The notes under the pieces: model-generated | Told to the model about the DNA's origin: nothing | Databases searched by the model: none | What the model saw: the letters and a program-made list of their open reading frames with translations, nothing else | Virus record (IMG/VR): IMGVR_UViG_3300032223_002232 | Location: 32,001 to 96,000 of that record | From: a virus | Reading direction: 5' to 3' (one strand) | Length of the DNA stretch: 64,000 bases | Program-made: the position numbers and the translations under genes | Shown: in pieces, positions 312 through 20,130 of the stretch | How positions within the stretch are numbered: the first letter of the stretch is position 1 | How the letters are laid out: each line of letters begins with the position of its first letter

Positions 312-3161
312 TTATGGACTTATAATATATTCTGATGGTTGATGAGTTGTATACGTCTCTGTTGTAGAAGTTATTTGTAATTTTGAACCAAACTTTGTAG
401 CATTACTAGAATCAAGATATATTGCACTAGCGTATTTAGTACCTGTTGTAGCTGTAAATACTGCTTTACGCAAAGGATATGCTTGAACTACACAGTTGTT
501 ACTATCATTAAAGAATCTGCAACCGAAAAGTACATCCCAAATTTGAGTCATGTAAATTGAATTATTACCAGTTTTATTATAAATATCATAACTGCCACTA
601 AGTGCTTGTGTTGTATTGGCATTTCTTAATGTAAATGCTGGGGCTGCAACCCAATTATCAACAACTGTTGATGTTCTAGATACATCAAAAGCTATATTAT
701 TACCGTTTACAGTACCACCATATCCTAAAGTATGTGAAATACCCCATGATGGTAATTTAATTGAAGTTAATGTAGTACCATCAGTTGTAACACCATATGA
801 TCCTCTAGTTGCATCTGTACCAGATGCAGTTACTGGATTTGGTGTTCTATTTGTTGTCATTATTTCACCTTTAACTGAACTAGCAACTAACCAATTTTTA
901 GCTGTTAGTGGCGAAGCTGTTGGGTTTGATGCCAGATATGTAGCAAGAGCACCAGCAACCAGTGGTGTTGCGGCTGATGTTCCATTATGGAATATATATT
1001 TTCCTTTGTATATAGCACCATATGTTGAAGATTGATCTACAAAAAATGGTTCTTGATCAGCACCACTCATTTCACCAGTAATTGTTTTAAATTTATTAGT
1101 ACTATAATTATATGTTGTATTACTAAAACCAGACCAAACAGCGGATGCCTCTGCATAAATATCAACATCTGGTCCAAAATTACTATATGGACTCTTTACA
1201 TAAAACGGTTTTGTAAATGAACCTAGATATGAAGTGCCATTAAATGTTAAACCACTCCATCCATATTTTAAGTTAAGATTGTTTGTACCATTATTAAATA
1301 GAACCCCAGCAGAACCATCTGATGTAAATGGAGCATATGATGTATTATTATATATGAAACAATTAGCTACACCAGCAACAGTGGTATACCATTGAATACC
1401 ATTAATTACATTATAAATTGATCTACAATAACCACCAGTATCATATGTTTGATTTGGATTTGTTTCAAGTGTACCAAGGGCTGTGACACATCCAACTTTA
1501 ATTATTGGATAAGTTGTTCTACTCCAATTTGTACCTGTGCTAGAATCTATTCCAGCACCAATATCTGGTGATGAATATGATAAATTTATTGTATTTGATG
1601 CATTACCAATTGAACATAAAGTATATGTTGTTGTATTATAAGAATCTGCAATTGTATAAACACTACCAAGAGATAAACCAGTAGCATTATCAACATAATT
1701 ACCAGTAGCACTATCAATAACCTTTTGTCTGAATACAGACCATAATGTGTTATTAAAAACAGTTCCAGATGAAGTACCATCGCTTCTTAAGAAAGTTAAC
1801 ATTGGTAATAATGTTGGTGCTTTATAGTTTAATTCTAAATTTGAATTACCAGCAGCTACAACACAATGGATACCGTTAGCTAATAATACTCTAAAATAAG
1901 CATCATAAACATCGTTTTGTCCCGGTAATTGTCTTGAATAAATATTACCTTGATTATTTGTAGTGTTTGTGTAATAATTTAAATTATAAAATGGTAAGGA
2001 ATCATAAAAATCAAAATATGTAACTACACCAGTTGAACCATTTGTAGATGTTATTCTACCTCTAGTTGAACCTAGATCAAAAGATCCAGCAAGTAATCCA
2101 TCATTATTATTACCATTTGGTGTAGGTGATCCAGTTGAAACATATGAATCATACGCAACTGATATTGGACTTATTGGTTTTGTTTTACCAGAAGGTACAC
2201 CTGATGGACCTTGATATAACCAACGAATATTGGTATCTAAGAATGGTCCAGCGAAACCACTTATATATGGTCCATTTACATTCCAACTATTGGAACATAC
2301 TGTTGGTCTACCACTAGATAAACCAAATAAATTATTTTGTTTTGCAAATACAAATCCAACAGCAAGTCTCATACAACAAGCCATACTAAAACCAAATGCT
2401 GCACCCAGTTCACTAACATTTAATGTATAAATTCTTGCATTTTTAGCTAATCCACATTTTAAACCAGCTATCAATGATGCACACTTTGTACCATGACCAT
2501 CAAAATCAACATAATAATTTCCGGGCATACCAGCGTAACCGAATTCGGGTAAAATTGCAGAATATGTGGTATTATTAGTACCAGCATCATATACACCTGT
2601 AAATGGATCTACTAATTGACCCCAATCAAATAATTGTACTAGATTATTTCCAAGATTATCTTTTAAATCTTCACACGAAGGATCTACACCAGTATCAATT
2701 ACTAAAATATCAACGTTTGAACAATCAACAGAATATGACGTTAAAAGATTATTAGCTGGTGCGGTTTGATTATAATCTGGTTTATAATTTGTTGCATAAT
2801 ACAGACCTACAGGTGCTAAATTTCCAGTTGGTGCTGTTTTAGGATATTGTGTTGTACTAAGATTACCACAAGCAGCCCAACTAGCATTTCTATAAATAGC
2901 ATCAGGTTGTCTTTCTTTTACATAAGCCAATGAAATTGTTGTTAAGTCTGTTCTATTTACAGAAACAACATTATCTAATTTCCTAACAGCATCAACTTCT
3001 TCTTGACTGAGTTGAAACTCCATAATATCTGGAACCATATTATGGGGGTCAATACATACCTTTGCGCCCGATAAACAACCAGTACCACTTAATGGATCTG
3101 TTAACAAATCGTAAATATAATCACCTGTATTACGATCTGTTGTTGTTATACAAACTTTCAT
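312..3161 (-). CDS. Subtilisin-like (S8) serine protease, 949 aa
   Basis: Catalytic motifs VIDTG, GHGT, AAGN (oxyanion) and GTSAATP occur in canonical order, after an N-terminal propeptide-like region. Confidence 0.9.
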   Translation of the reverse strand: MKVCITTTDRNTGDYIYDLLTDPLSGTGCLSGAKVCIDPHNMVPDIMEFQLSQEEVDAVRKLDNVVSVNRTDLTTISLAYVKERQPDAIYRNASWAACGNLSTTQYPKTAPTGNLAPVGLYYATNYKPDYNQTAPANNLLTSYSVDCSNVDILVIDTGVDPSCEDLKDNLGNNLVQLFDWGQLVDPFTGVYDAGTNNTTYSAILPEFGYAGMPGNYYVDFDGHGTKCASLIAGLKCGLAKNARIYTLNVSELGAAFGFSMACCMRLAVGFVFAKQNNLFGLSSGRPTVCSNSWNVNGPYISGFAGPFLDTNIRWLYQGPSGVPSGKTKPISPISVAYDSYVSTGSPTPNGNNNDGLLAGSFDLGSTRGRITSTNGSTGVVTYFDFYDSLPFYNLNYYTNTTNNQGNIYSRQLPGQNDVYDAYFRVLLANGIHCVVAAGNSNLELNYKAPTLLPMLTFLRSDGTSSGTVFNNTLWSVFRQKVIDSATGNYVDNATGLSLGSVYTIADSYNTTTYTLCSIGNASNTINLSYSSPDIGAGIDSSTGTNWSRTTYPIIKVGCVTALGTLETNPNQTYDTGGYCRSIYNVINGIQWYTTVAGVANCFIYNNTSYAPFTSDGSAGVLFNNGTNNLNLKYGWSGLTFNGTSYLGSFTKPFYVKSPYSNFGPDVDIYAEASAVWSGFSNTTYNYSTNKFKTITGEMSGADQEPFFVDQSSTYGAIYKGKYIFHNGTSAATPLVAGALATYLASNPTASPLTAKNWLVASSVKGEIMTTNRTPNPVTASGTDATRGSYGVTTDGTTLTSIKLPSWGISHTLGYGGTVNGNNIAFDVSRTSTVVDNWVAAPAFTLRNANTTQALSGSYDIYNKTGNNSIYMTQIWDVLFGCRFFNDSNNCVVQAYPLRKAVFTATTGTKYASAIYLDSSNATKFGSKLQITSTTETYTTHQPSEYIISP

Positions 3162-3167
3162 TGTTTT

Positions 3168-3593
3168 TTAAACAAAGAATACTAATACTTTGTCGCCTGA
3201 TATTGTTGTAGAAAATGTTTTAAATTCTGCATTTGCAACCCTTGCTGCAAAATCACCCCATTTATCGATAGTTGTACTTGCAACCTTACCAGTAAGACTT
3301 ACTATTGGTGCTAATGAATTAACCATTATACTATCAAAAAGCTCACCAATATTATTTTCTGTAGCATAGTTATATAAAAACTCAATTGATGTATTTCTAT
3401 AAAGTTCTGTATATAAAACTATTTGTGATTTACATGAACATGAATTATCATAATAATAACTTACGATTTCTGCTGAAATATAAGGAGCAAATGTTTGAAA
3501 TTTAGTTACAAAATCATCCACTCCAGATAATTGTAACATACCTACGAATACATTTGATATTGGGTTATAAGCTTGTAATGTTTCTAATGTCAT
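3168..3593 (-). CDS. Hypothetical protein
   Basis: 141-aa ORF with TATAAATA 4 nt upstream; ends 6 nt before the protease start. Confidence 0.75.
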   Translation of the reverse strand: MTLETLQAYNPISNVFVGMLQLSGVDDFVTKFQTFAPYISAEIVSYYYDNSCSCKSQIVLYTELYRNTSIEFLYNYATENNIGELFDSIMVNSLAPIVSLTGKVASTTIDKWGDFAARVANAEFKTFSTTISGDKVLVFFV

Positions 3594-3607
3594 ATTATAT
3601 TTATATT

Positions 3608-4030
3608 TTAATTGATAAATTCAATTCCTTCTAATAACTGTGCAGATGCCATATTATTCAACGTATTTTGTAATTCAAATACTGTAACATTTGTTACAAT
3701 ATCTTGTAAATCTGATGATGGGAAAAGTTGAGGTGGTTGATTATATAAAGATGATACTGGTACAGTTTGAACCGAATCTATAGGTAATCCACTAATAAGT
3801 GGTGTAAAATGAGTAACATCGGATTCAAAATTTAATATAGCTGATACAATAGGTTTCATATATTCAGCTATTTGAATTAAAATATCTTTATCTGGATTTA
3901 AATTTGAAATGTTAATATTAACTGGTGAATATTCAGCAGATGGTCTTTTAAATTCAGTTGAATATGGTCTAACTAGTATACCATTTCCAACAATACTAGT
4001 TTCTAATATGCTAAAATTTACTTCATTCAT
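3608..4030 (-). CDS. Hypothetical protein
   Basis: 140-aa ORF co-oriented with neighbours, preceded by TAAATA motifs. Confidence 0.75.
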   Translation of the reverse strand: MNEVNFSILETSIVGNGILVRPYSTEFKRPSAEYSPVNINISNLNPDKDILIQIAEYMKPIVSAILNFESDVTHFTPLISGLPIDSVQTVPVSSLYNQPPQLFPSSDLQDIVTNVTVFELQNTLNNMASAQLLEGIEFIN

Positions 4031-4066: not shown

Positions 4067-7000
4067 TTACCAGCTGAGTGTCGCACCATTAAGCGCATAT
4101 GGTCTTGTTATTGAACCTTCATTTGTTAATGAAACCGAACCAAGACCTTCAGTTGAGAATCCTGCTCTACCACCTACGCCTAATGCACCAGATTGAGCAA
4201 ACAATTGAACACCATTTACACCTGTTGCACCAAACCAATTACCATAACCACCCACGCTACCATATTGATCATTTGCTGCATTAAGTCCAGATCCAGTAGC
4301 TGCCCATCCAACAGGTGCTACTGTTGGTGATGATTCTACATAATTTCCAAGTGTTGGATTATTAATTTCCCATGCGAAGAAGTTGCCATTAACATTTTCT
4401 GTAGAAGTATTAGCAACATACCATGATCTACCATTAAATGTATATGTTGATGTTGGAGTCATTACGCCGCCTGCGCCCATACCCCATCCACCAGTTCCTC
4501 CAGCTGCTCTATATGTATATCCATTGACCTGTGATGTTGTTGTTTTTGATGTACATGTACCGTTGAGGCAGAATGACCAACAACTTCTCAATGTATGACC
4601 TGAGCAATATCCAAAGATACTGAATCCACCATCGCAACCACAAGAGCATCCACCACCTGTCATGTCTTGTCCATTACATGTTCCACATGATGAACCTCTA
4701 CTTCGACATGTACAGCCAAAAAGAAAATAAGGACATGTTGTTATTGTAGTTTGGATTGTATTTGTTGATTGCCAGTTAATACCAGCACCACCACCACCAC
4801 CGCCGCCGCCAGCATAGATTCTATTATAGTTAATGAGTGTAATTGGAATATCACTGTATATACATGTTCCACCCGGAGTACCACTACCACCTGCTGATAC
4901 AACTGTACTTGGTGTTGTTGAAGCTGCGCCTGTTGGTGCACCACCAGCACCACCAACACTATGAGCACCATATATGTTACCTAAATTGTAAATCTTAATC
5001 GTAGTTAATCCACTTGGGAAACCATTTTGTGGTGTATTGTTACTGGTTAAGATTGACATAGCAGGACATGGACCTGCTGCTTTATTTGTTAATACTCTAG
5101 CATTTGCCCAAGGTGAAGGTGCTACAGCTTGAGTTTGACTATTACCACCTGCATTACTTGAGTAAATTGTCACACCGTATGGAATAATAACTGTTAAGTT
5201 AAGTGCATTTGTACCATTCCACGTTGAATTCTTTCTAACATATTGGTAAAGATCAAGTTGATCTTGATCAGTTGGAATTGTTAAAGTTAAATTATATGTA
5301 CTACTCTGACCTTGGAAATATGGTGCAGCAATAAATTCTTCATTACTGAATACATAATTTCCACTTGCTGGTGCTGGTGGTGGAACTGGAGGTGTTCCAC
5401 CAGTTGTACCTCCACCGCCTGATGCTGGAGGTGTAGCTGCTGGTGTTTGTGAAAGTGCTGGTGTCTGTGTTACAGGATTTGAAGGTGTTTGTGTTACAGG
5501 ATTTGAAGGTGTTTGTGTTACAGGATTTGAAGGTGTTTGTGTAAATGTAGGAGTTGGTGTGTTGTAATTTGATGGTGTAACCGTCTTTGTCATCGTAGGC
5601 GTTACAGACGGTGTATTTGGTGGTGTTGTTGGTGTTACAGTTGGTGTGATTGTTGGTGTAACAGATGGTGTATTTACTGGTGTTCTTGTGACTGTTGGAG
5701 TTACAGTTGAAGATGGTGTATTTGTTGGTGTGATTGTAGATGTATTTGTAAGCGTAATTGTCGGACTGTTTGTAGGTGTATTTGTAGGTGTATTTGTAGG
5801 TGTATTTGTAGGTGTTGCTGTTGGTGATGATGTTGCACCCGGAGTTACAGTTGGTGTTGCCGTTTGTGAATTTGTAGGTGTAACTGTCTTTGTAGGAGTA
5901 TTTGTTGGTGTAGTTGTTGGTGTAACAGTAACCGTTGATGTAACTGTTAACGTTACAGATGGAGTAACACTATTAGTTATAGTTGGCGTTACGGTATTTG
6001 TAGGAGTATTTGTAGGAGTATTTGTAGGTGTAACTGTAGGCGTTACGGTTGGTGTATTTGTAGGAGTTGATGTTGCGCCAGATGTTTGTGTTGCTGTAAC
6101 GGTAGATGTTACTGTAGGAGTTGTTGTAGGAGTTGTTGTAGGAGTTACAGTTGGTGTTACGGTCGGAGTATTTGTAGGCGTTACTGTTGCCGTAACAGTT
6201 GGTGTGTTTGTTGGTGTAGCAGTTGGTGATGATGTTGCAGCAGGTGTATTTGTTGATGTTACGGTTACAGTAACAGTTGGTGTGACTGTTGGTGTATTTG
6301 TAGGAGTTACAGTAGGTGTTGTTGTTGGGGTTACCGTAGGAGTATTTGTAGGCGTTACTGTAGGTGTATTTGTTGGTGTTACAGTTGGTGTTGATGTTGC
6401 ACCAGATGATTGTGTTACAGTAACCGTCACAGTTACAGTTGGTGTATTTGTAGATGTAACTGTTGGTGTATTTGTAGGAGTTACAGTTGGTGTATTTGTC
6501 GGCGTTACAGTTGGTGTATTTGTTGGAGTATTTGTAGGTGTTACGGTTGGTGTTGATGTTGCACCAGATGATTGTGTTACTGTAACTGTAGTTGTAACGG
6601 TTGGGGTGTTTGTAGGTGTAACTGTTGGAGTAACAGTAGGAGTAACTGTTGGAGTAACTGTTGGAGTAGTTGTAGGTGTTACGGTAGGAGTAGTTGTAGG
6701 TGTTATTGTAGGTGTAACGGTTGCCGTGTTTGTAGGAGTAACTGTTGGGGTTGCAAATTGTGTTTTTGTTACAGTTACAGTTGTTGTTGATGTAACTGTA
6801 GTTGTAACGGTTGGGGTGTTTGTAGGTGTAACTGTTGGAGTAACTGTAGGAGTTACTGTTGGTGTAACTGTAGGAGTATTTGTTGGTGTTACTGATGTTG
6901 TTATTGTTGGCGTTACAGTTGGTGTTGCTGTTGGTGTGGATGTTGCACCAGATGTCGGTGATACTGTTACTGTTGTTGTAACTGTCGTTGTTGGTGTAAT

Positions 7001-10000
7001 TGTAGGAGTTGGTGTATTTGTAGGAGTTACAGTTGGTGTATTTGTAGGAGTTACGGTAGCAGAATTTGTAGGTGTTAATGAATTGGTTGGTGTAACTGTT
7101 TGAGTAGTTGTTGGTGTTATTGTTGGTGTAATTGTCGCTGTTACTGTTGGTGTGGATGTTGCCGTTGGTGATGATGTTGCGCCCGGAGTTACGGAAACAG
7201 TAGGAGTTATTGTTGTTGTTGGTGTGATCGTTGCTGAATTTGTTATTGTTGGTGTAATTGTCGGCGTAGCTGTAATAGTAGGTGTTATAGTCGGCGTTGG
7301 TGTTATTGTATTGGTTGGTGTTCTTGTGGGGGTTACAGTAGTTGTAACAGTTGATGTAATTGTTGGAGTGATTGATGGCGTATTTGTAATTGTTGCAGTA
7401 ACAGATGGTGTTGGTGTACTTGTTATTGTTGATGTTATTGTTGGGGTTGGGGTTGCCGTTGGTGTAGGAGATCCAAGCGGTGTTCTTGTGACTGTTATAG
7501 TTGGCGTAACTGTGTTTGTTGGTGTTATCGTTGCAGTCTGTGTTACTGTTGGTGTAACAGTTACAGTATTTGTAGGTGTGAGTGTTGGTGTTACGGAACT
7601 TGTTGGTGTATTGGTTGGTGTTATTGTTGATGTTACAGTTGGTGTTATAGTTGCAGTAACTGTAGTTGTGGGTGTAACTGTAGGTGTTGATGATGCCGCT
7701 GGTGTATTTGTAGGTGTGACGGTTGCTGTAACTGTTGATGTTACAGTTGGTGTGTTTGTTGGACTATTTGTAGGAGTAATAGTCTGAGTATTTGTTTGTG
7801 TAACAGTAGGTGTATTTGTAGATGTTGGTGTATTTGTTGGTGTTATAGTAGGAGTTTTTGTAACTGTAGCTGTTTGTGTATTTGTAGGAGTAATTGTTGG
7901 TGTAACCGTTACAGAAACAGTTGGTGTATTTGTAGGAGTTGAGGATGCTGCTGGTGTATTTGTCGGTGTTACAGTTGGTGTGTTTGTTGGACTTACAGTT
8001 GGTGTGTTTGTAGGTGTAACTGTTTGACTATTTGTCGGTGTATTTGTAGGAGTGTTTGTAGGAGTTACAGTTTGTGTTTTTGTAACTGTAGCTGTGACTG
8101 TAGGTGTGATAGTAGGTGTTACTGTATTTGTAGGAGTATTTGTAGGAGTTACGGTTGGAGAGTTTGTGGGTGTATTTGTTGGCGTAACTGTTACAGATGC
8201 TGTTGGAGTATTTGTAGGTGTTGATGATGCCGCTGGTGTTTGAGATTGTGTTACTGTTACAGTAACGGTTGGTGATACTGTTGGTGTAATTGTTGCAGTA
8301 ACAGATGGTGTAGGTGTTATCGTCACACTTGTTGTAGGTGTGATTGTTGGAGTATTTGTAGGTGTGAATGTAGGCGTTACAGTTACGGTATTTGTAGGAG
8401 TTACCGTTGCTGTAGTTGTTGGAGTAATTGTTGGTGTAACCGTTACAGATACCGTTGGAGTAATTGTTGGAGTTGAAGATGCCGCTGGTGTGTTTGTAGG
8501 AGTATTGGTCTGTGTATTTGTAGGAGTATTTGTAGGGGTGTTTGTAGGAGTTACAGTTTGTGTTTTTGTAATTGTTGGAGTAACTGTTACAGTGTTTGTT
8601 GGTGTTACTGATTTTGTTGGTGTTACAGTTTGTGTAACGGTTACAGTATTTGTTGGTGTTACGGTAGGAGTTACTGTTGATGTTGGTGTAATTGTCGCTG
8701 TTACTGTTGGTGTTACAGTTGGTGTTGAAGATGCAGCTGGTGTGTTCGTAGGTGTTACAGTAACAGTCGATGTATTTGTTGGAGTTGCCGTTGATGTTAC
8801 AGTTGGAGTTGGAGTGTTTGTAGGTGTAACTGTTGGAGTAACAGTTGGAGTTACTGTTGTTGTTTTTGTAACCGTAACCGTAGGTGTAATAGTTGCTGTA
8901 TTTGTAGGAGTATTTGTTGGTGTAACTGTTATTGTAACAGTTGGAGTTACTGATGCAGCTGGTGTTTGTGTTTGTGTAACAGTTGGTGTAATTGTTGGAG
9001 TGATTGTTGGTGTCTTTGTAACCGTAACTGTAGGTGTAGCTGTGCGAGTTGTTGTAGTGGTTATAGTTGGCGATACTGTTGGGGTAATCGTCGGTGTTAA
9101 TGTTGGCGTTCTTGTTGGTGTAGCAGTAGGCTTTGGTGTTTGTTCAAAAACAGGAACATCAGAATTGGCTAATTTAATTGTTGTAGCACCTCCACTATAA
9201 TAATTTAAAGTGTATTTAGAGTTACTATCTAATGGTGAATATAATGAATAAAATGCATTATATGGTGCTATTTGAAATGGTGCACAATAATTGCTAAGTG
9301 TTGAATTACTATTATCAGCTTTATTGTTAACTAATTGATTTTTAAATGTACTACTGAATATATATCCTGAAATATCTATTGTAGAATTATTTAAGAAAAC
9401 ATAATTTGGATTATTTTGATTACTATAATTTAAACTAATTACATATGAATAATCATATGTAGTTGATTTATTAGAAGTTAAATTAAATGTCCAAGTTGTA
9501 AGACCAAATCTATATGGCGTTACTATATTAAAAGATCTTTCAAAATTTAAAAATTGGAAATTTGTATTATTATAATTTAAAAATAAACGTCTATAAGTTT
9601 GATTATTTGAATCATCAATTGCAAGTGAACTTAATGTAAAATTAGTGCCTCTAAAAATTTGATCATTTAAAGTTAAATCGGTATTGGCTCCAATATTATA
9701 AAAAGATCTGGCTGTAAAATTACCATCAAATATTATTGATGCATTTAAATTACTACCATTACCAATTTCGGTATTTGTATTATAATCTAAAAATATAATT
9801 TTATTAAAATTACCAATGTTTTCTGTATTAATAAAACCTCTACTATGATAGGTCGGATTTACTCTATCAGAATTACCAATAATAGACAATCCGTAACCGG
9901 GATAATAATCAGGACCAGATGCACCTTGTATTAATTTCCAAGCTGTAGTATTCCAAGTTGCTGTACTTAAAAAGTATGGATCAGTTTGATTAATACCACA

Positions 10001-11668
10001 AACATATAATTTTGCATTTGAATATGCATCAATAGCACCATATGCATAGGTAGATGTACCAAGCATTGCTATTGTTATGTTTTGGATATTGGTTACGCCA
10101 GAATAAAAAATTAAAGCTGTTGAATCAAGAGCATTTGTATCAAACTCAAAACATAAATTTTTTAAATTTAAAGTTGTTTTTGGATGATGTGAAAATGAAA
10201 TTTGCCTTGCAAAAATTGGGTTGTTTCCATTTGAATAACAATCAATCCAATTTGATGCATTTGTTCCAAAATCTGAAAATTTTAAATTGTTATCAAAACT
10301 AATATACGTTCTAGTAGTTATTTTTCTTGGTGATATATTAAAAGGTTTTTTATCGGTATATACTGGAATAAAATTATTAGTTAAAAGGTTTGTTATGAGT
10401 TCTCCAATTTCATACATACCCAAAATTTCTACAGATAAGAAATCTAAATTAGATAAACTGAAATATGAAAATCCACCAGTTAAAGGAACACCTTTGTTTT
10501 TAGCCCAAATAAAATCACCACCTTTAATTCCTTGTGCATATAAATCTGGTTGATTAGCCTTCATCCAGTTTTCACTGAAATAAGCTGATGAAAGATTTCC
10601 ATTAAATGTACAACCAGAATAAGTTCCATCGTTTTTTGAATTATCTTCACCACAAACTAAATCATCATATATTAAAATTTTTAAAGAATTGCCAAATAGA
10701 TTATTATTTGAAACATAATCTAATACAGCTTTTATATTTTTAAAGAATGGTTTTGCTACACCAAAATCATCATTATGATCATGATCCCAAGCTGAACTTG
10801 TTTGTGATCTCACTACACTAATATTATCAGTAGATTGACTATCAGATGGTTTTACACCAAAAATATAATCGTTTTGATTTACTAGTGATAATTTATTTGC
10901 ATAATTATATTTTAAATTTGAAGATGTATCTAATGCAATATTAGCATATAGTTTATCACCATATAAATTTCCACCAATTGTTAAATTTTGATCTACATTT
11001 ATATCATTAGCTGTTAATTTATTAAATTTAGTAAATTGCGCAGAAACATAAGATGTATTTGTATTATTGTTTAGATATAAATTATTAACATATAAATTAT
11101 TTGATTGAATTTCAAAATTAATAGAACTTAAAATTTGATTATGAGTTAAAGACGTACTAGTTATATTGTTATATATTGTAGAAAGTAAATTTATAGTTGT
11201 GGTATTAATTGTATCACCAATTAATGTATTAAATGTTGCATTTGTATTTGAAGATATATTAGGTACAAAAGTTATACCGTTTGGATATCTTACATTTAAA
11301 CTTAAATTACCAACAAGATTATTACCTGTAATGGATGGTATATATGCATCTATAATTCCAACACTACCATTAATATCAAAATTAAAAATTGGATCTACTT
11401 TATTATAACCTATTTTATTGTTTTTAAGAATTAATGTATCATTAGATGTGAAAACTCTAGAGTTCTTATAAGATGAACTTATCCCAATTGTTAAGAAATA
11501 ATAAGTCTGTTCAGCTTGTGCAGTAGTATATGATAAAGGTAAACCTAAACAAGGTTCAACTGAATCAAGAGTTATAAACCCATAATTATAGGCATTACTA
11601 TTAATATCCGAAGCCGTTAAAGGCTTAAGAGGAAATAATTGTGTCAATGGAGTTAATGATATATCCAT
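4067..11668 (-). CDS. Giant fibre-like protein: N-terminal beta-rich region, ~1,230-aa Thr/Pro mucin-like stalk, Gly-rich C-terminal head with Cys-rich insert
   Basis: ~2,530-aa ORF. Likely start is ATG 11668 after an AGGGAG SD. The first ~830 aa are paralogous to 11733..14249. Confidence 0.8.
5430..9140 (-). repeat. Low-complexity coding repeat ([12 protein letters not shown])n
   Basis: About 3.7 kb of degenerate 12-bp units (e.g. gtaggtgtattt on +) encoding Thr at alternate residues. Confidence 0.95.
5460..5541 (-). repeat. 24-bp tandem repeat, ~3.3 copies, encoding TPSNPVTQ
   Basis: ggtgtttgtgttacaggatttgaa is repeated near-perfectly. Confidence 0.9.
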
Positions 11669-11732
11669 AATCAACTCCCTTAACTTGGCTCATTTTGCCA
11701 TTTTAAAAATATTTTTAATAAAAATGCATTCA

Positions 11733-14249
11733 TTACCTAGTACTTTGTGTATAAAAATTTAGTGTATAATTTGTGTTTGTTTGATTAGTTGGACTATTTA
11801 AATTAAATATTCCATACTCATTAAAATTTTTGATACCATATATACTCGTGTAATAAATTTTATCATTAGTATTGAAGTTACTATTTTGTAAGAAATTAAT
11901 ATGACCCAAAGAATTTACAGAATTTGTTAATGATATATAAGATGGTGCATGTGTATCAAAAAATGTATAATAAGAATCATATACATTATTATAAACATTA
12001 AGGTATGTGTTATAATTTGTACCCTGAACTGAATCCTGTAATCTGAAACTCCAACTTGCAAATATATTGCTTATTGGTGTAAATGATGCAAATGAACCAT
12101 TAAAATTTAAATATTTGAAATTCAAATTATAATTTGATATTTCAATTTGATATGATGCATTTGTATTTTTATTATTATATATGATATATTTTGAACTTAA
12201 TCCAAATCCAGTTGTTTTGAATAAATTTTGTTGTAATGATACAGATGATCTATTGTCAAGATTAAACAAACAATTAGCATAAAAATTACCATCAAGTATA
12301 ATACTGCTTTGTATTAAAGAATAATGACCAATCTCTCTACTAGCAGCACTATAATCAATTAATGTTAATTTACCACCATCTCTTACGTTAATCAGACCTG
12401 TATATGGTTGTGCTTCTGTATAGTTTACAATTGTTCCAGTTTGATCTGCGGGATTTCCTACAATCGCTAAACCATAACCCGGATAATAATTTGGATCATT
12501 GAACCCATAACCTGTTGACCATGTATTCCAATTTTTATTACCATAAATGTTAGTTGTTAAATAATAAGGATCTAAAAGATTATTACCACAAATATTAATT
12601 GTTGCGAGTTCAGATTCGACGTTTAATGCACCATATGTGTATATACCATTACCTAATAAAGCAACAGTAATATTTGAGAGGTTATTATTACCATTGTAAA
12701 ATACTAAACCTGATGAATCTATTGAATTTGTATAAATTTCAAAACATAAATTGTTTATTGATAAATTTACAAGCTGCGATTGGTTAAATTGAATTGGGCG
12801 ACCTATGACTGAAGATTTTGTATAAACATCAGTCCATGTATTATAATCAGTACCGTAAAAATTATTAAATGGAACGGCTGAATTTGAACAAATATATGTT
12901 CTGCATGTTATTTTTCTTGGAGCAAAATTAAATGGTCTCCATGTTGAATAATATTTTGTTAAATCATTGTTTACATATGTACCAAGTTCATATCTACCTT
13001 GTATGTTGATATTATTAAATTTTAATGGGTATAAATTAATATAAAAATATTCTCCACTTATATCTGCACTATTATTTTTAGGCCAAATGAAATCGCCGCC
13101 TTTTATTCCAGAATAATATAAATCTGGATATACAGCTTGTAGATATTCTGAACTATAAAAAGCAGAAGATATATTACCAGTATATGAACAACCTGAATAA
13201 GAACCACTACTATCAGATGTCCATGCATTTGCTTTATTCTCACCAGCTACAATATCCTCATCAACCCATATTGTTAAGTTATTACCAAAAATACCATTAG
13301 TGTAGATGTAATCTATAACAGGTTGAATATTTTTAAAATAAGGTTTTAATGTATTTGAATCGGTTGATACACCATCAGTAGGACCATTTATTGTTCTTGC
13401 TATGTTTATATCATCGGTGGAATAACTATCTGATGGTCTAATTACGAAATAATAATTTTTATTTGTAGATACACTTAATTGATTTTGATTATTGTAATAT
13501 AAAGGTGATGATTCATCTATTGCAATTTTACCATAAAAATTATTAGCATAGATATCGTTTTTAACATTAACATCATTATTAACTGTAATTTTAGTTGAAG
13601 ATACTTGACCAATAAATGAATTATTCGAACTTAAATTTTGTGTTGTTAATTTATTAGAACTATATACATTATTAGCAGTTAAATTTGCTGTTATGCTTAC
13701 GTCATTTGTTGCATATAAAGAATTTAATATATATGTGCTTACATTTTTTGTTATATAATTAAAAATACCAGCATTTAAACTAAATGTAGTAATATTGTTA
13801 GCAGTTAATTTATTAGTATATGTAGTTGCATTAAAATAAACATCACTGTTAAAACTAACACCCTTTGCATAATTAACAACAAGAGTATCATTACCATATA
13901 GGTTAGATGCATTTAAGTTTGTTATATAAGCATCAGATGCTCTAAGATTACCACTAATATCAACATTATATGTTGGATTTGGGTTATTAATACCCAATTT
14001 TTTATTTCTGATTATTAATGAATCATTACCACTAAATTTTCTAGAATTTAAATAAGAATTGGCTATTCCAAATACTGGAAAATAATATGATGAATTACTT
14101 TCAAATAATGAATAACCAGTAGGGAGTCCTAGACTAGGTTCAACTGCACCAATTTCAATATACCCTGTATTATAAGCAGTACTATTAACATTGTAATCCA
14201 GCGGATTCAGTCTATACCTATTACCTACTGATGGAGGACTCGTTGACAT
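11733..14249 (-). CDS. Fibre/structural protein, stalk-less paralog of the giant protein
   Basis: Shares blocks AYNxG..VEPSLGLP, KPx[13 protein letters not shown], PRKITxRTYI, YYPGYGLxIxGN and SIIxDGNF with 4067..11668. Confidence 0.8.
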   Translation of the reverse strand: MSTSPPSVGNRYRLNPLDYNVNSTAYNTGYIEIGAVEPSLGLPTGYSLFESNSSYYFPVFGIANSYLNSRKFSGNDSLIIRNKKLGINNPNPTYNVDISGNLRASDAYITNLNASNLYGNDTLVVNYAKGVSFNSDVYFNATTYTNKLTANNITTFSLNAGIFNYITKNVSTYILNSLYATNDVSITANLTANNVYSSNKLTTQNLSSNNSFIGQVSSTKITVNNDVNVKNDIYANNFYGKIAIDESSPLYYNNQNQLSVSTNKNYYFVIRPSDSYSTDDINIARTINGPTDGVSTDSNTLKPYFKNIQPVIDYIYTNGIFGNNLTIWVDEDIVAGENKANAWTSDSSGSYSGCSYTGNISSAFYSSEYLQAVYPDLYYSGIKGGDFIWPKNNSADISGEYFYINLYPLKFNNINIQGRYELGTYVNNDLTKYYSTWRPFNFAPRKITCRTYICSNSAVPFNNFYGTDYNTWTDVYTKSSVIGRPIQFNQSQLVNLSINNLCFEIYTNSIDSSGLVFYNGNNNLSNITVALLGNGIYTYGALNVESELATINICGNNLLDPYYLTTNIYGNKNWNTWSTGYGFNDPNYYPGYGLAIVGNPADQTGTIVNYTEAQPYTGLINVRDGGKLTLIDYSAASREIGHYSLIQSSIILDGNFYANCLFNLDNRSSVSLQQNLFKTTGFGLSSKYIIYNNKNTNASYQIEISNYNLNFKYLNFNGSFASFTPISNIFASWSFRLQDSVQGTNYNTYLNVYNNVYDSYYTFFDTHAPSYISLTNSVNSLGHINFLQNSNFNTNDKIYYTSIYGIKNFNEYGIFNLNSPTNQTNTNYTLNFYTQSTR

Positions 14250-14264
14250 AGGATTACAAACTGA

Positions 14265-14633
14265 TTAGTATGGTGTATTAACTGTTTCTAATATAGATAA
14301 TGTTATATTAATTTTATTATTATTAGCGGCAGATACGATAAAATTATCGTAAGCTTGTAAAACCAATTTATTAACTACGATGTTTACAGTGTCGTTTGGT
14401 GGTAATTGGAATCCTTGGAGTATGCTAATTGATGGTGATGCTTGTACATCCCCACCGGGACTAGCTGTGGTTGATAATGCAGCATTTACTGTTTGTGCTG
14501 TGCTATCAGTATTTGTAGCTAATGCTGAGATTATTATACCTGCTCGTTGGAACGGTGTGGTGTATATCGACGTTGGTGTAGTTGTCACCGCTGTTGATAT
14601 TCTTTTGAAGTAATTTAAGGGTATTTTTGCCAT
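14265..14633 (-). CDS. Small beta-rich structural protein
   Basis: 122 aa with TATAAATA 6 nt upstream; ends in the SILE motif often seen in small myovirus virion proteins. Confidence 0.65.
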   Translation of the reverse strand: MAKIPLNYFKRISTAVTTTPTSIYTTPFQRAGIIISALATNTDSTAQTVNAALSTTASPGGDVQASPSISILQGFQLPPNDTVNIVVNKLVLQAYDNFIVSAANNNKINITLSILETVNTPY

Positions 14634-14653
14634 ATTCTATATTTATACTTATT

Positions 14654-16723
14654 TTACTCAAGTACAATATTAAGTGGTGTAACCAAGGTTAAAATCGCTC
14701 TTTTGAACGTATCACCATCAATTGTTCCTGTGCTTTGTAAAATTTTGAAACTTGGACCTACTTTAAAGTCACCTAATTCGTTTGAACTTGTATAGAACAC
14801 GATTCCGGGTAAATTTGTATTAATTTCAGATATAGGTGCTCCTGTAGTGTCAAATGTTATATTGCCATATGTATCTAATACATAATTTGGCACACCTGCA
14901 TCAAAAATTGCTTCTGTGTTGTTATTAGCAACACCACCATTAGCTGGAATAGCCCAATACATTCTAGTACCAGTTCCCATGTATTCAAATGTATGAGAAC
15001 CTGTTTCGATCATACTTCTTGCATAAAACTTCATAGGAGCATTTGTGAAATCAAGACCTCTTAAATTTGTTAAATCTAATGGAATATTAAAATTTAATAA
15101 TATATCATATGCGTTATTAAGACCGCCTGTATAATTTTTCTTTGGTGTAATCTCAACAAAGAACAGCTTTGGTTCTGGTTTACCATTTAATGATATATCA
15201 CTATCTAAAATATAACCACCTGTAGGTTGACCATTCCAAGGATTGTCATCACCAATAGTAAAACACATATTTGTATATGGGAAACTTGCAACCGATTGAG
15301 TATTACCAAAATTGTCAGGATTAATTTGTAATGTAGATACATTGTTAACTGTGAATAAGTTACCAGCTGGTATATAACCATATGGTGGTACATTACCACT
15401 ATATGTATTTGGATCAGGAGCCATTGTAAATGTACCCTGTAAGATTGGTGTAGGTGATTTACCTCTGGCTATTAAGCCTGATAAACCAAATGTTGAATTT
15501 GATGTACTAATTGAACAGCTTCCACCAGTTTCGCAAACAACACCTTCTTTTGTTGCAACGGTAAAGATACTAACAAACTGAGCATAACCATGATTTTTGA
15601 TAACAATACCTCTACCACCTTGGTTAACTTGTGTGAATGAGTCAAGAACCATACTTCTGATATAACCATCAACTAAACTACCATCAATTCTCATACCTGT
15701 ACCTGCATTATTTGAACCTGTACCATATGTTCCTGTATTTGGATCAATTGAACCCTTATCAACAAGTGCTAAATTATCTGGTACAGAATATGACGTACAA
15801 CCCTGTACATATGGACTTGTGTAAATGGTTGGTCTAAGATTAGGAACAATTGCTGGATTAATTTCATAACCAGCGGTATTGTAAGCTATATTATATTGTG
15901 TTTGGGTTTCTGTTGTAACTGTAGCATTTGAAACTGGAAATGCTATAGCAGCTGAACCACCAACAATATCTTCAACTTCTTTTGTTATCTGTGTGTATGT
16001 TCCAGTATTTGAATCATAAGATACATCCACTACATTTCTTGTTTGAACAATGCTCTTATGACCTCTAAAAGTAAATCCCCAAATATAACAAGCACTACTA
16101 ACCCAGAACATGTCATTATATGCATATGTTGAATCATAAGGTCTAATTGTTGTTCTTCTTAAATTGTCACCAATCATTGATGTATTTGGTGGAAGATAAA
16201 TTGGTGTCTTTTCTGCATAATCACCAGAACGAACCATGATTGTGTATTGTTTCTTAGTTTGTGGTGGTGGTAAGAAATCTGCACCACCAGCGGTAGCTGC
16301 TGCTTCTAATGCCATAGCATCGGAAATAGCCTTTGCTGCTCTTTTAATTGTTCTAAATGGTAATTCTTCGTTTCTACCTCTTGTTGGTGAGTCAATTGTA
16401 TCACTAGCATTTACGTTATCAGATGATACATAATAAACTTCATTTATTACTGGACCATGTTTGTTAATATAATCTAATAGGGTTTGAACTGTTAAATTCT
16501 GTGTTGTGCCATTTGATCCTTGAGATATAGGCATTAAACTTGTAGAATCAATACTAGTTGTACTATCAAGTTGTGGTAATGAGTGAGAAAGAAAATCTAA
16601 AGGATGAACTTTTCTAGTAATATCTTGCTCAAGTACTAATAAATTATTTTTAACATCTATTGGTACTGCTGGTGATGCGTCCTGTCCACCTAAAGGTAAT
16701 TCGGGTATTCTGATGTAAGCCAT
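14654..16723 (-). CDS. Tail fibre/spike-like protein with beta-helix (pectin-lyase-like) domain
   Basis: Motifs YYVS..GR..PFRTIKRA, VRSGDYAE, GDNLRRTTIRP, SPYVQGCTS, SMVLDSFTQ and GDFKVG resemble large T4-like phage fibre proteins. TATAAATA lies 6 nt upstream. Confidence 0.7.
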   Translation of the reverse strand: MAYIRIPELPLGGQDASPAVPIDVKNNLLVLEQDITRKVHPLDFLSHSLPQLDSTTSIDSTSLMPISQGSNGTTQNLTVQTLLDYINKHGPVINEVYYVSSDNVNASDTIDSPTRGRNEELPFRTIKRAAKAISDAMALEAAATAGGADFLPPPQTKKQYTIMVRSGDYAEKTPIYLPPNTSMIGDNLRRTTIRPYDSTYAYNDMFWVSSACYIWGFTFRGHKSIVQTRNVVDVSYDSNTGTYTQITKEVEDIVGGSAAIAFPVSNATVTTETQTQYNIAYNTAGYEINPAIVPNLRPTIYTSPYVQGCTSYSVPDNLALVDKGSIDPNTGTYGTGSNNAGTGMRIDGSLVDGYIRSMVLDSFTQVNQGGRGIVIKNHGYAQFVSIFTVATKEGVVCETGGSCSISTSNSTFGLSGLIARGKSPTPILQGTFTMAPDPNTYSGNVPPYGYIPAGNLFTVNNVSTLQINPDNFGNTQSVASFPYTNMCFTIGDDNPWNGQPTGGYILDSDISLNGKPEPKLFFVEITPKKNYTGGLNNAYDILLNFNIPLDLTNLRGLDFTNAPMKFYARSMIETGSHTFEYMGTGTRMYWAIPANGGVANNNTEAIFDAGVPNYVLDTYGNITFDTTGAPISEINTNLPGIVFYTSSNELGDFKVGPSFKILQSTGTIDGDTFKRAILTLVTPLNIVLE

Positions 16724-16765: not shown

Positions 16766-18433
16766 TTATGCTGTATAAGATCCAGATGAATTAAATGTTA
16801 AAATTGTATTGGAACCATTTGTTGTTACACTTGGAGATCCTGTTGTTATGTTAGAATATCTGGATGTTGGTATTGAAAGTATAACAACACCAGAACCACC
16901 GTCAGCTGGATGTCCACCAGTATTATATGAACCTCCACCCCCACCTCCACCTTTATTGGCTGTTCCGTTCTGTGCAGCACTTGTTTGTGTTCCACCATTA
17001 CCACCTCCACCATTACCACCGTTACCGCTATTTGATCCACTATAGCCACCACCGCCACCGCCACCACCACCGTAATATAACCCTGTTATATTTACTTGTA
17101 AACCATCACCGCCATTTGCACCAATAGCATCCCACAATCCATTGCCTTCTCCGTTACCTCCGTTTTGATTAGAACCAGCACCACCAGCACCACCAACGCC
17201 ATAGGTGTGGGAACCGCCAGTAAAGCCATTTCCGCTATTACCACCTTGTAAACCAGCTGCTCCATTTCCACCTATTGCTGTTAATGTTCCTACGATTGAT
17301 GAATCTTGCCCATTTGTTCCAGTATATGAACCAGCACCACCAGCACCAACAATAATATTATAAATCTGGTTAGCTGTTACATTAATTGTTGAAAAATTAA
17401 CTGCACCAGCACCACCACCATTACCGGGACCGGGAGCACCAGAATAGCAGCCACCTCCACCTGCACCAACTGTTAAATAATTTATATTATATGTTGGATC
17501 ATATGTTGGTGTTGGAGTTAAAGTTGGTGTTGGAGTTAAAGTTGGTGTTGGAGTTAAAGTTGCTGATGGGGTATATGTTGGTGTAACAGTTGATGTTGGA
17601 GTATATGTTGGCGTAACAGTTGATGTTGGAGTATATGTTGGAGTTATAGACGGCGTTGGTGTTGGTGTTAGTGTTGCAGTTGGCGTAATTGTAGGCGTTG
17701 GTGTAGGCGTTGGTGATGGTATATAGTCAAGAATAAATGAACTTGAATTACCAAAAAGAGAAAATGCATTGGTTGTGTTTAATACACCATAAGGTATAAA
17801 TGAATTAATTTCTAATATATCTTTTGTGTTTAAATTGATACTAATTAAACCATTTTGTCCAATATCATTTTTAACAAAAAATGAAATATTAAAAACATTA
17901 GTATCAATATTATATGTTAACTTTGGATCTTCTTTTATGCCATTAGATGATAATAAATTTGTTATAGTATCAAATCCCAAAACTATATATTTTTGAAAAA
18001 TTTGATTTATTTTACCTGTGTTAATATTAAATTCTTTAAAAAATAAACAAAATTTTATATTTTGATTATTATCAATAACTAATGGATTAAATCCACAAAA
18101 ATATACTTTTTGGTTTAACTCATCAAACCAGTAATCAATATTTGTATCTGATAAATTATGATGAAAATCAAATAAACTATGTGGTTTTATAGTATTACCA
18201 TCAAAAACTAATTTTTCAAATATATAACCATTTTTAGTTTGAATAAAAATACTATCATAAAATACATCAAATCTTGTAATAATATTATAATTTAAATCAT
18301 AATAAAAATCAGGATGTAAAAATTCATATTTTAAATAAACAGAAGATAGAATTTCATTAGCAGATTTAACATTATTCTGCACATCTCTTAACCAAAGCTC
18401 TCCGTTGTAATTTATATCATTATAAAAGTTCAT
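16766..18433 (-). CDS. Structural protein with PT linker and C-terminal glycine-rich domain
   Basis: Likely start MNFYND at 18433 (ATGA overlap with the upstream stop). TP repeat at ~17500-17720, then [10 protein letters not shown]...GGSGVVILS. Confidence 0.75.
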
Positions 18434-20130
18434 GGTGTATATGGTGGATAAATTGAAGTGTAGGATGCTAATGAAGCGGATACAGGCCAACGGTAATATG
18501 TACTGAATAAGTTATATAAGTCGGCATTAACAGCTTGTGATACCGCTAGTGCGAATGTATCGCAAGCATTTTCTATATCTGAACCTGATGTAATATTTAT
18601 TTGTTTAATATTACTCCAAGTGTATAATAAGAATTGATCTCCAAATTTATTATATAAATCAAACATGAATGAAGCAAACATATCAGTACCCTGTAACGAT
18701 AATGCATTTGTTGGTGCTATATTATCATAAACTGTATTCATGAAATTATAAGATGGATCTGCTATATATGTATTAATTAAATTAATTACACCATATTTAA
18801 AATCATTGAATGGTGTACCATTAAATGGTGCGCCGTTTACTCCAGCAGAATCCATAGACATAAATCTCATAAATACCGCAAATCCAGTGGTAACCGTTTC
18901 ACTTGGTGTTGCATCAACTCTTCTTAAACTATCAACCCAGAAATTCCTTCCTAATTCATAGAATAATACTTGATCAAATTGATTATTCAAATTAACACCG
19001 CTATAAAGAGCATCCCATGATGATCTGAGTAATTCAATACCAGTTCTACCTAATTCACCACAACCAGAACCACATGTAGTGTTAACAACACTTACAGGAT
19101 CTTTACCTCTTAAAGTTACAAGTGTTAATGGATATTCACCGATTACTCTATAATAGAAGTCATAAGCTTTATCTAATTTATAGATTATATAATCTATTAC
19201 TGCTCGGTTTACATTTATGTTGGAAGGAATTTGTAAAGCTACATTTCTTCCAAGATAAGCTTTCATGTTGTAATTTACACTATCAAAACTTGTATATAAT
19301 GTATCTATTACTAATGAAGGACCATATGGTAGTGTTGGTGTTGGTGTAACCGTTGGTGTATGAGTGATTGTTGGTGTTATTGATGGAGTTGGTGTCGGTA
19401 TTTGTAATGATCTTGTAACTGTTGGTGTTATAGTTGGTGTTACAGTTGGTGTTGGTTGTATTTGTGGAATTGGGTTTAGATCTGGATTTACTATAGTTGT
19501 TTTTTCGTAAGGTATGATCGTTACTTCATTATTAACATTAGCAGATGTTAATGTTTTAAATTTACTAGTAAATGGATAAATATAGTTATAAGGTTTACTT
19601 AATTTATCAGCTGATATAATTGGTTTTGGTTTTAATTTCCAGTTAACCAAAGACATCAATATATTATTTTCATTTTGAGTTTGGAATGTATAAAGAATTT
19701 TATTGTCAGGTCCAAACATTTTAGTTTTTATTAAATGTATTTCATTGAAGAATTTATCAACACCATAATCCATTGGTGGATTTTTTAAATTTAATAAAAT
19801 TGTAAATGTTACAATATCAGAACTACCAAAAACATAAACATTTACATTAACTACATAAGTTGAAAGACTTAAATCTTTTGAATAAAACTCTTTAGTTTTT
19901 GGGTAATTTCTAGGATCACCTATTTCATTTGAAATTGGTAACCTATTATCTGAACCTAAAACTGGTTTAAATTTTACAATATCAGAAGTACCATCACCCC
20001 AAATATACTCAATCATTCTAATTTTATGAGATAATGATAAAGTTCTTGGGTCTATAGTTAAATCAAAAGGGGCATAATCACTAATAATTTGATTATCAGA
20101 ATTAAGATAAACTGTACGATTATAAACCAT
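18430..20130 (-). CDS. Structural protein with PT linker and C-terminal degenerate zincin-like domain
   Basis: PKD-like WGDGT near the N-terminus, TP repeat at ~19330-19460, and TCGSGCG...[10 protein letters not shown] in the C-terminal domain. Confidence 0.65.

Follow-up and report, generated by a model that had tools for sequence, protein, structure and literature searches.

What could a phage gain from a protein in which threonine recurs at nearly every second residue over more than a thousand residues? The question is raised by a stretch of 64,000 nucleotides (the window), positions 32001-96000 of IMGVR_UViG_3300032223_002232, a 169,763-bp IMG/VR virus record of an uncultured phage. One gene on its minus strand encodes a fibre-like structural protein whose middle is a Thr-x-Thr (TxT) stalk. 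The reading favoured here, with a probability of roughly 0.55, is that the protein is a fibre of a T4-like phage in which a mucin-like, O-glycosylated tether carries a host-binding head. Our conclusion is that the stalk acts as an extended, non-globular spacer within a virion fibre; judging from the genes that accompany it, O-glycosylation of its in-phase threonines by the phage's own pathway is most likely. With a CheckV completeness of 77%, the record has 30.9% GC and five tRNA genes, and by its gene content it is that of a T4-like myophage. Its gp23-like major head protein matches phrog_138 (3.7e-87, PHROGs), and the stalk gene is flanked by a baseplate wedge protein (phrog_219) and by tail-fibre PHROG families. 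The capsid protein shares at most ~34% identity with any of 50,697 cultured phage records, which sets the phage at a distance from cultured ones.

The stalk lies within a single long open reading frame (ORF), whose parts are listed below. Coordinates are those of the window unless marked otherwise, and residue numbers are counted from a TTG at 11674 (protein P0001) rather than from the ATG at 11668.

4067-11668, minus strand: whole gene for a fibre-like structural protein of 2,533 residues; its ORF extends upstream to the TTG at 11674
10877-11668, minus strand: N-terminal ~266 residues, presumed virion (baseplate) attachment and neck region, with the motif AYNxGFIxLxxVEPSLGLPxG
9248-10876, minus strand: predicted right-handed parallel beta-helix (pectin-lyase/tailspike fold), residues ~267-809, from AlphaFold2 (AF2) and VIA-align
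5468-9136, minus strand: TxT stalk, residues 847-2069, 1,223 residues in a single register, from composition, autocorrelation, Fourier analysis, and Tandem Repeats Finder (TRF)
5460-5542, minus strand: 24-nt unit (QTPSNPVT) in 3.5 copies at 98% identity, distal stalk end, from TRF
4070-5401, minus strand: C-terminal head, residues 2092-2535, Gly-rich motifs (GGGGGGGGAG) around a Cys-rich insert, candidate gp38-like adhesin

The likely start codon is the ATG at 11668. The gene is taken as 4067-11668 because a Shine-Dalgarno-like AAGGGAG lies 6 nt ahead of this ATG and the alignment with a paralogue, described below, begins at the same Met. Across the whole tract the frame of the stalk gene is the only one continuously open; plus-strand ORFs at 5646-7103, 7152-7787, and 8340-9200 were considered as genes and rejected as antisense by-products of the repeat. 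The protein is built of three parts, an N-terminal tailspike-like beta-helix module, the TxT stalk, and a Gly/Cys-rich head.

An earlier note on this DNA had placed the tract at 5430-9140 (~1,230 residues) and had described Thr or Ser at alternate residues with Pro, Val, Asn, or Ile between them. Its limits are now refined to 5468-9136, and the alternation is firmly established, with Thr/Ser at 93.0% of one phase versus 12.6% of the other and one register held over all 1,223 residues. Periodicity analysis, which that note had proposed as a check, gives a Fourier peak at period 2.0 with 383 times the mean power and a lag-2 autocorrelation of +0.75 that does not decay to lag 12. The only other Fourier signal, at ~4 residues, comes from (T-P-T-x) units, and TRF finds periods of 12, 24, 36, and 162 nt, the 12-nt units at 61-80% matches. 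In composition (T 566, P 216, V 139, S 79, N 78, A 48, I 42, G 7, C 0), Thr makes up 46%, Pro 18%, and Ser 6% of the 1,223 residues, the very high Ser/Thr/Pro content in tandem repeats by which mucin-like domains are recognized. Residues sandwiched by two Thr/Ser include P 198, V 135, N 71, and I 42; Pro fills 35% of x positions, or about every fourth residue, and Asn hardly ever falls in an N-x-S/T sequon (2 of 78), as had been noted before.

The regularity of the stalk is punctuated by 13 octapeptides (8-mers) of two classes, six of one and seven of the other.

PAAS[SV]TPT: residues 905, 979, 1063, 1147, 1241, and 1325
[PS][GA]ATS[ST]PT: residues 1497, 1575, 1703, 1757, 1811, 1865, and 1945

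Their spacings are all even (74, 84, 84, 94, 84, 172, 78, 128, 54, 54, 54, and 80 residues), and each stays in register, with one in-phase Thr swapped for Ala or Gly and small residues at two x positions; they are mild interruptions of the pattern rather than breaks in it. Because of this spacing and the 162-nt (54-residue) TRF period, they look like the borders of an old higher-order repeat of 54-94 residues. The earlier note had counted about 14 such motifs and had drawn from them a segmented, hinged stalk. The two motif classes are real, but the count is 13, the register is barely interrupted, and the 8-mers are absent from the stalks of the homologues P0005, P0016, and P0019, for which reason a hinge function is conjecture. 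The hinge-type motif was also considered as a general feature of TxT tracts and rejected, being confined to the stalk gene and, as PAATVSPT, to one other phage population (L097, L103, L130).

The codons of the tract show that it is old. Usage of Thr, Pro, Val, and Asn codons in the stalk is that of the rest of the gene and of the genome (for the Thr codons ACA/ACT/ACG/ACC, 0.64/0.23/0.07/0.05 in the stalk versus 0.55/0.31/0.05/0.10 in the genome), and when the segments between punctuation motifs are compared, identical residues at matching positions use the same codon at frequencies of 0.36-0.73, versus 0.48 by random draw. Synonymous sites are thus saturated while the Thr phase has been kept, which argues for purifying selection on the protein; selection rather than recent slippage had also been the earlier reading of the varied codons and the open 3.7-kb frame. 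Only the 24-nt QTPSNPVT array at the distal end has expanded recently. Exact repeats within the tract do not exceed 54 bp (no 55-mer occurs twice), which leaves it resolvable by ordinary reads and k-mers.

The three-part organization is not peculiar to this gene. In the homologues P0016 (1,774 residues), P0019 (1,341 residues), and P0005 (1,891 residues), which come from three independent assemblies (ENA, Logan, and Joint Genome Institute (JGI)), the N-domain is likewise followed by a TxT tract and then by a Gly-rich head, of the Gly_rich_2 type in P0005. The shared order of parts in these metagenomic proteins upholds the earlier proposal that the tract joins an N-terminal module to a C-terminal head. 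Stalk length in relatives, which the earlier note had suggested comparing, is about 190-260 residues in these three against 1,223 here, a more than 5-fold variation within one protein family that suits a spacer. The contour length of the stalk would be ~300 nm at 0.25 nm per residue and ~420 nm fully extended; by polymer reasoning its mean span without glycans would be a few tens of nanometres. The tether of ~300 nm proposed earlier therefore keeps its spacer role, which the homologues support, but the figure is a contour estimate for a stiff, glycosylated chain and was overstated.

Structure prediction places the N-terminal module among phage tailspikes. Its motif AYNxGFIxLxxVEPSLGLPxG is kept across the 21 family members on which the AF2 model was built. 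Model confidence is low for residues 1-175, as expected of an oligomeric fibre stem, and high for residues ~270-830 (block-mean predicted local distance difference test (pLDDT) mostly 80-97, with a few blocks at 52-75). For the N-terminus, ESM Atlas gives weak leads, with scores of 0.85-0.87, to phage tail trimer, gp9/10 N-terminal, and BppL_N clusters. In VIA-align comparisons the best match to the model is the Acinetobacter phage Fri1 tailspike (gp49, 6c72_A; Z 12.6, root-mean-square deviation 3.2 A over 223 residues), followed by pectin lyases (Z 12.5) and the Agrobacterium phage 7-7-1 tail fibre (Z 11.8); 63 chains reach Z of at least 8, and the matches listed are nearly all right-handed parallel beta-helices. 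Residues 267-809 are accordingly predicted to form a right-handed parallel beta-helix of the tailspike/pectin-lyase fold, which was recovered by VIA-align only, as Foldseek with the same model gave no E below 0.2. In sequence searches, exhaustive HMMER with the N-domain found only 50 representative clusters, all metagenomic; Pfam and PHROGs assigned no family to N-domain or head (one marginal PHROG match, E 0.009), and tblastn with both against the 50,697 cultured phage records gave no match.

The module has a paralogue next door, which stands immediately upstream.

11733-14249, minus strand: paralogue of 838 residues without stalk or head; BLASTP 36% identity over its full length (E 2e-143) to the N-terminal 846 residues of the stalk protein

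The N-terminal module of the stalk gene therefore appears to have arisen by duplication of the gene upstream. This tandem pair is also found in loci L008 and L012, and in L014 the gene with the stalk comes directly after a relative that lacks one. In L008 (12846-16052) the second copy of the pair runs off the contig 62 residues into a TxT tract; such tracts can thus end short-read contigs, and lengths taken from databases are lower bounds. The T4 late-promoter motif TATAAATA occurs at 14647 (minus strand), upstream of the paralogue-stalk gene pair, and again at window position 3605 (minus strand), upstream of the gene at 3168-3593, a placement consistent with late expression.

At the other end of the protein, three weak, independent lines of evidence converge on a likeness of the head to gp38. 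In ESM Atlas, 29 of the 30 nearest clusters carry PF05268 (GP38), with a score of 0.94 and 200 of 256 shared features. Homologue P0016 has a sub-threshold PF05268 match at the corresponding place (E 0.0045, 17.3 bits versus a cut-off of 25), and hhalign of three aligned heads with Salmonella phage S16 gp38 gives a probability of 71% (E 3.7e-5, 53 columns, 42% identity). The head of the stalk gene itself has no PF05268 match at the Pfam gathering score, no PHROG family, and no PDB sequence match, either as a single head or as a three-head profile. A word-index homologue search with the head, restricted to longer proteins, returned none; phmmer against all ORFs of the fetched loci returned only the head itself, and BLASTP against P0016, P0019, and P0002 gave marginal segments only. 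Gly-rich motifs, of which a polyglycine-II sandwich would be built, are present by sequence; the fold model reaches a pLDDT of 27.7 only. The head is best described as a probable adhesin not assigned to the gp38 family.

A possible chemistry for the stalk is suggested by genes for glycosyltransferases and a sulfotransferase elsewhere in the same genome.

Genome 23067-24320, same strand as the stalk gene and downstream of it: GT60 (PF11397 'GlcNAc') gene, E 4.4e-69, 234 bits versus a cut-off of 21
45566-46384, plus strand: sulfotransferase gene among fibre genes, possible glycan-modifying enzyme, PF13469 E 1.2e-9, PF00685 E 4.1e-7

The first of these belongs to a cluster at genome 15-24 kb, downstream of the stalk gene and on its strand, in which genes of the types GT17, Galactosyl_T-like, RXYLT1_C, HtrL_YibB, and TylF-type methyltransferase lie beside it. 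Its assignment to GT60 follows from the PF11397 score above cut-off together with a GT-A motif of the DxH/DxD type, an LDSH of metal-binding type at residues 90-93, which we take to resemble the DxH of the related GT27 enzymes; a PDB sequence search with the protein found nothing meaningful. It has no transmembrane or hydrophobic segment (highest 19-residue Kyte-Doolittle average 0.75) and would therefore be cytoplasmic. To our knowledge the GT60 family has so far been characterized only in eukaryotes. Its enzymes start mucin-type O-glycosylation by adding alpha-linked N-acetylglucosamine (GlcNAc) to Thr in T. cruzi and Dictyostelium, and the family includes a cytoplasmic enzyme that acts on Skp1 (PMC8724618, PMC7504415). 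A candidate initiating polypeptide glycosyltransferase, an expected component of a mucin system, is therefore present in the same system as the tract (PF11397). This gene and the further glycosyltransferases make a mucin-like, O-glycosylated stalk the leading reading, one that the earlier note had not raised.

Linkage between the two kinds of gene extends to other phages. In the contigs of P0016 and P0019 (L012 and L013), the two syntenic relatives with a Gly/Cys head, the stalk gene is followed ~8 kb downstream, in matching gene order, by a PF11397 gene, and additional glycosyltransferases are encoded as well; the P0005 locus carries other glycosyltransferases. A set of 72 IMG/VR loci was chosen solely by similarity to GT60; in 48 of them one or more ORFs with at least 30 residues of TxT lie within 10 kb, with tracts of up to 1,934 residues (L066), compared with none of eight control loci. 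The controls were five T4-like structural modules (~180 kb in all, with no GT60 match in a search of the phage collection) and three loci of the N-domain family on contigs without a PF11397 match. GT60 homologues, at 47-48% identity, occur in only four cultured phages (Xanthomonas XacN1 and Xoo-sp13, and Stenotrophomonas CM1 and RAS14), and XacN1 also has a TxT protein.

L095:5932-7896 (AP018399.1 235607-237571): XacN1 ORF350, 655 residues, with a ~180-residue TxT tract and a TxT C-terminal tail

This ORF lies 12 kb from the GT60 homologue of XacN1 (ORF334), and XacN1, a cultured jumbo phage, offers an experimentally tractable case for phage O-glycosylation. The giant ORF325 beside that homologue was considered as a long TxT protein and set aside, as it has only a 12-residue SP/TP linker.

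A fibre of this kind could be made and used as follows. Late in infection the stalk would be made in the bacterial cytoplasm, where the soluble phage GT60 would move GlcNAc from host uridine diphosphate (UDP)-GlcNAc onto the in-phase threonines. The GT17-, GT31-, RXYLT1-, and HtrL-like transferases, the TylF-type methyltransferase, and perhaps the sulfotransferase may extend and cap the chains. The chain would be kept extended and protease-resistant by its dense glycans, its beta-branched residues, and a Pro in every fourth place. This could let the head reach hosts as far as a few hundred nanometres away from the baseplate, with the Gly/Cys-rich distal module probably binding the host surface as the T-even gp38 adhesin does.

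Several considerations weigh against this reading. Its fibre is known from the genes of an uncultured phage alone; the head assignment rests on sub-threshold evidence, and the AF2 head model, built on a three-row alignment, is unusable for fold at a pLDDT of 27.7. The substrate of the GT60 enzyme could be another virion protein, a host protein, or hydroxyproline, and we know of no requirement of mucin domains for strict alternation. Further complicating the picture, PF11397 was seen in 9 of 41 TxT-bearing viral records, chosen solely by a DNA pattern for a 15-residue peptide, and in three of nine among those at least 50% complete. The 32 records in which it was not seen include one 94% and one 76% complete. 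TxT tracts as a class thus do not need GT60, and its role may be taken by other transferases or by none. The exact 15-mer of this set is absent from the 72 GT60 loci, so that the two sets of loci rest on different criteria. Finally, the GT60-TxT enrichment is very large but confounded by shared ancestry: the phages are related, and the enrichment is therefore not independent evidence of function.

These same records bear on the most durable of the alternatives, which we nonetheless consider unlikely, namely that the stalk is an unglycosylated Pro/Thr linker, a passive and semi-flexible spacer, and that the glycosyltransferases modify other virion proteins, DNA, or the host envelope. Short Thr/Pro linkers do join domains in other proteins of the same phage and in XacN1 ORF325, GT60 was not seen in 32 of the 41 TxT-bearing records, one of them 94% complete, and phage glycosyltransferases often act on DNA or the host surface (PMC12619734). 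Yet a linker of this kind would need far less constraint than is found in the stalk, where Thr/Ser keeps 93% of one phase over 1,223 residues despite saturated synonymous sites. Moreover, GT60 is a family of protein-Thr/hydroxyproline transferases and no DNA glycosyltransferase (PMC8724618, PMC7504415), its gene is syntenic with the stalk gene in relatives, and TxT tracts accompany 48 of 72 GT60 loci versus 0 of 8 controls.

A structural alternative, judged improbable, is that the tract forms regular beta-structure, such as a trimeric beta-helix or a beta-solenoid whose Thr residues make up a flat face, and serves as a rigid shaft or as a surface- or ice-binding array. Alternation by two residues is the signature of a beta-strand, here with a Thr face opposite a face of Pro, Val, Asn, and Ile; the single register over 1,223 residues is left unexplained by a disordered model, and phage fibres are commonly trimeric beta-structures. 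Pro at 35% of x positions, however, is incompatible with the hydrogen bonding of a regular sheet, and the even register follows simply from four-residue (12-nt) units. The only periods are 2 and ~4, with no coil period of 12-19 residues, no Cys, 7 Gly, and no turn ladders; Asn stands only at alternating x positions rather than at the fixed coil positions of a solenoid. The more than 5-fold variation in stalk length among homologues and the free C-terminal TxT tails in other phages also argue against such a shaft. TxT ice-binding beta-solenoids, such as insect antifreeze proteins, share the Thr-x-Thr tripeptide with the stalk but have the coil period and the Cys/Gly turn ladder that it lacks, and in view of its 18% Pro the analogy with ice- and surface-binding proteins drawn in the earlier note is not supported.

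That the tract is an assembly artefact, itself unlikely from the repeat analysis, or a degenerating repeat that is not expressed has very little to commend it: the record is a metagenomic assembly, 77% complete, and the L008 contig ends inside a TxT tract, but at 31% GC a single frame stays open for 7.6 kb and encodes folded domains on either side of the tract, no 55-mer is repeated, codon usage is that of the genome, and the architecture recurs in the ENA, Logan, and JGI assemblies.

Comparison with known systems clarifies what would be distinctive about an O-glycosylated stalk. The closest are the GT60-dependent mucins of T. cruzi and the spore-coat proteins of Dictyostelium, which resemble the phage system in their long Thr/Pro-rich tandem repeats, matched here by a PF11397 gene in the same genome, in the GT27 DxH-like LDSH of the enzyme, and in the further transferases that adjoin it. 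They differ in that the system here belongs to a bacteriophage rather than a protist, its enzyme lacks a membrane anchor and would act in the bacterial cytoplasm, its acceptor is strict Thr-x-Thr where theirs has Thr runs, and the phage side is known from genes alone. Likewise, the 'PT box' linkers of bacterial cellulases and xylanases are extended (TP)n-type spacers between folded domains, some of them O-glycosylated in their native hosts, but they span tens of residues where the stalk spans 1,223, with Val, Asn, and Ile alternating with Pro at x, in a virion protein. The gp38 proteins of T-even phages (T2, T6, Salmonella phage S16; PF05268) also place a module with Gly-rich motifs at the distal end of the fibre; gp38 is a separate protein, whereas the head here is fused to the fibre, has a Cys-rich insert, and scores below the Pfam threshold. 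Beta-helix tailspikes and depolymerases (Fri1 gp49, Klebsiella depolymerases) share the fold predicted for residues 267-809 (Z 10-12.6), but their beta-helix is distal and receptor-cleaving, and here it is proximal to stalk and head.

Modification of virion proteins by phage-encoded enzymes has a precedent in mycobacteriophages, whose own glycosyltransferases decorate their structural proteins (Freeman et al. 2023, as summarized in PMC12619734). The same is proposed here, with the difference that the sites in that summary are short C-terminal ones on capsid and tail-tube proteins, whereas the phage stalk is a kilo-residue fibre tract with GT60 as candidate initiator. The literature on GT60 in phages, on mucin-like phage proteins, and on Thr-rich glycosylated fibres yielded no description of such a system; the 'moraphage' paper (PMC12619734), considered as a prior account, concerns a different lineage and makes no mention of Thr tracts. 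In these terms the tract would be a domain of the mucin or PT type put to use as a stalk of kilo-residue length in the fibre of a phage.

Were glycosylation of the stalk borne out, mucin-type glycoproteins would be known from tailed phages as well as from protists and animals. It would also show how a phage can, in dilute water, extend its capture radius well past the reach of a T4-type long tail fibre (about 145 nm), with tract length, which ranges across phages from 190 residues to more than 4,600, as a dial that evolution can turn. A broader proposal, offered tentatively and held with less confidence than the fibre reading itself, is that large aquatic phages make their own mucins by means of a soluble, protist-type GT60 whose acceptor code is the alternation. 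A strictly alternating TxT sequence would put all glycans on one face of the extended chain, and the resulting sugar-coated filaments, hundreds of nanometres long (1,223 residues here, more than 4,600 elsewhere), might act as lines for fishing hosts or form a glycocalyx around the virion.

The 1,223-residue tract is in any case a mid-sized example of what is apparently a widespread and undescribed feature of large uncultured phages. TxT tracts are probably under-reported, because short-read assemblies break at them and low-complexity filters mask them. The longest belong to one population found in many samples, and others accompany GT60.

L097:508-13224, L100:1-10995, L103:2-13885, and L130:973-12663: giant TxT ORFs of one population, on IMG/VR contigs of 70-155 kb
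L066:13035-20756: 2,574-residue ORF with a 1,934-residue TxT tract, in a GT60-bearing locus
L066:1239-9920: 2,894-residue ORF with many shorter TxT tracts

The L097 ORF has a 66-residue N-terminal domain (MALIKINTGNF...) followed by at least 4,239 residues of TxT that run off the stored stretch, and in L103 a TxT stretch of 4,628 residues is open at either end and is punctuated by PAATVSPT at intervals of 24-96 residues, mostly 72-96. No GT60 is seen in most records of this population.

The phage of the window itself has further TxT proteins, two of them structural proteins encoded within the window, and, around the stalk gene, other genes of the fibre cluster.

17501-17716, minus strand: 72-residue Thr/Pro linker in a second fibre-like protein (gene 16766-18490), between its N-terminal domain and a Gly_rich_2 (PF21722) head
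53069-54550, minus strand: 493-residue protein with a ~160-residue N-terminal domain (no Pfam family) and then ~330 residues of TxT to the C-terminus
Genome 12172-15174 (L001:172-3174), plus strand: 1,000-residue RCC1-repeat beta-propeller protein (E 3.6e-45) with a 26-residue TxT run (genome 13402-13479)
3168-3593 and 3608-4030, minus strand: two small genes of 141 and 140 residues, no family, directly downstream of the stalk gene
312-3161, minus strand: gene of the fibre cluster for a 949-residue protein that contains a subtilase S8 domain (E 1.9e-21)
46771-48375, minus strand: 534-residue protein, 35% glycine, with two Gly-rich repeat halves (phrog_2295, E 1.9e-47), adjoining the sulfotransferase gene

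The gene at 16766-18490 repeats the three-part plan of the stalk protein in miniature. The longest unbroken TxT run of the 493-residue protein covers 53285-54034, and as no distal head follows, the tract of this protein would itself stand exposed, as a 'hair' and not as a tether. Two short TxT tracts lie in the genome outside the window, and the RCC1-repeat protein adjoins the glycosyltransferase cluster. The two small genes at 3168-3593 and 3608-4030 may encode chaperones for the assembly of fibre or adhesin; L012 and L013 have small genes of similar size at this position.

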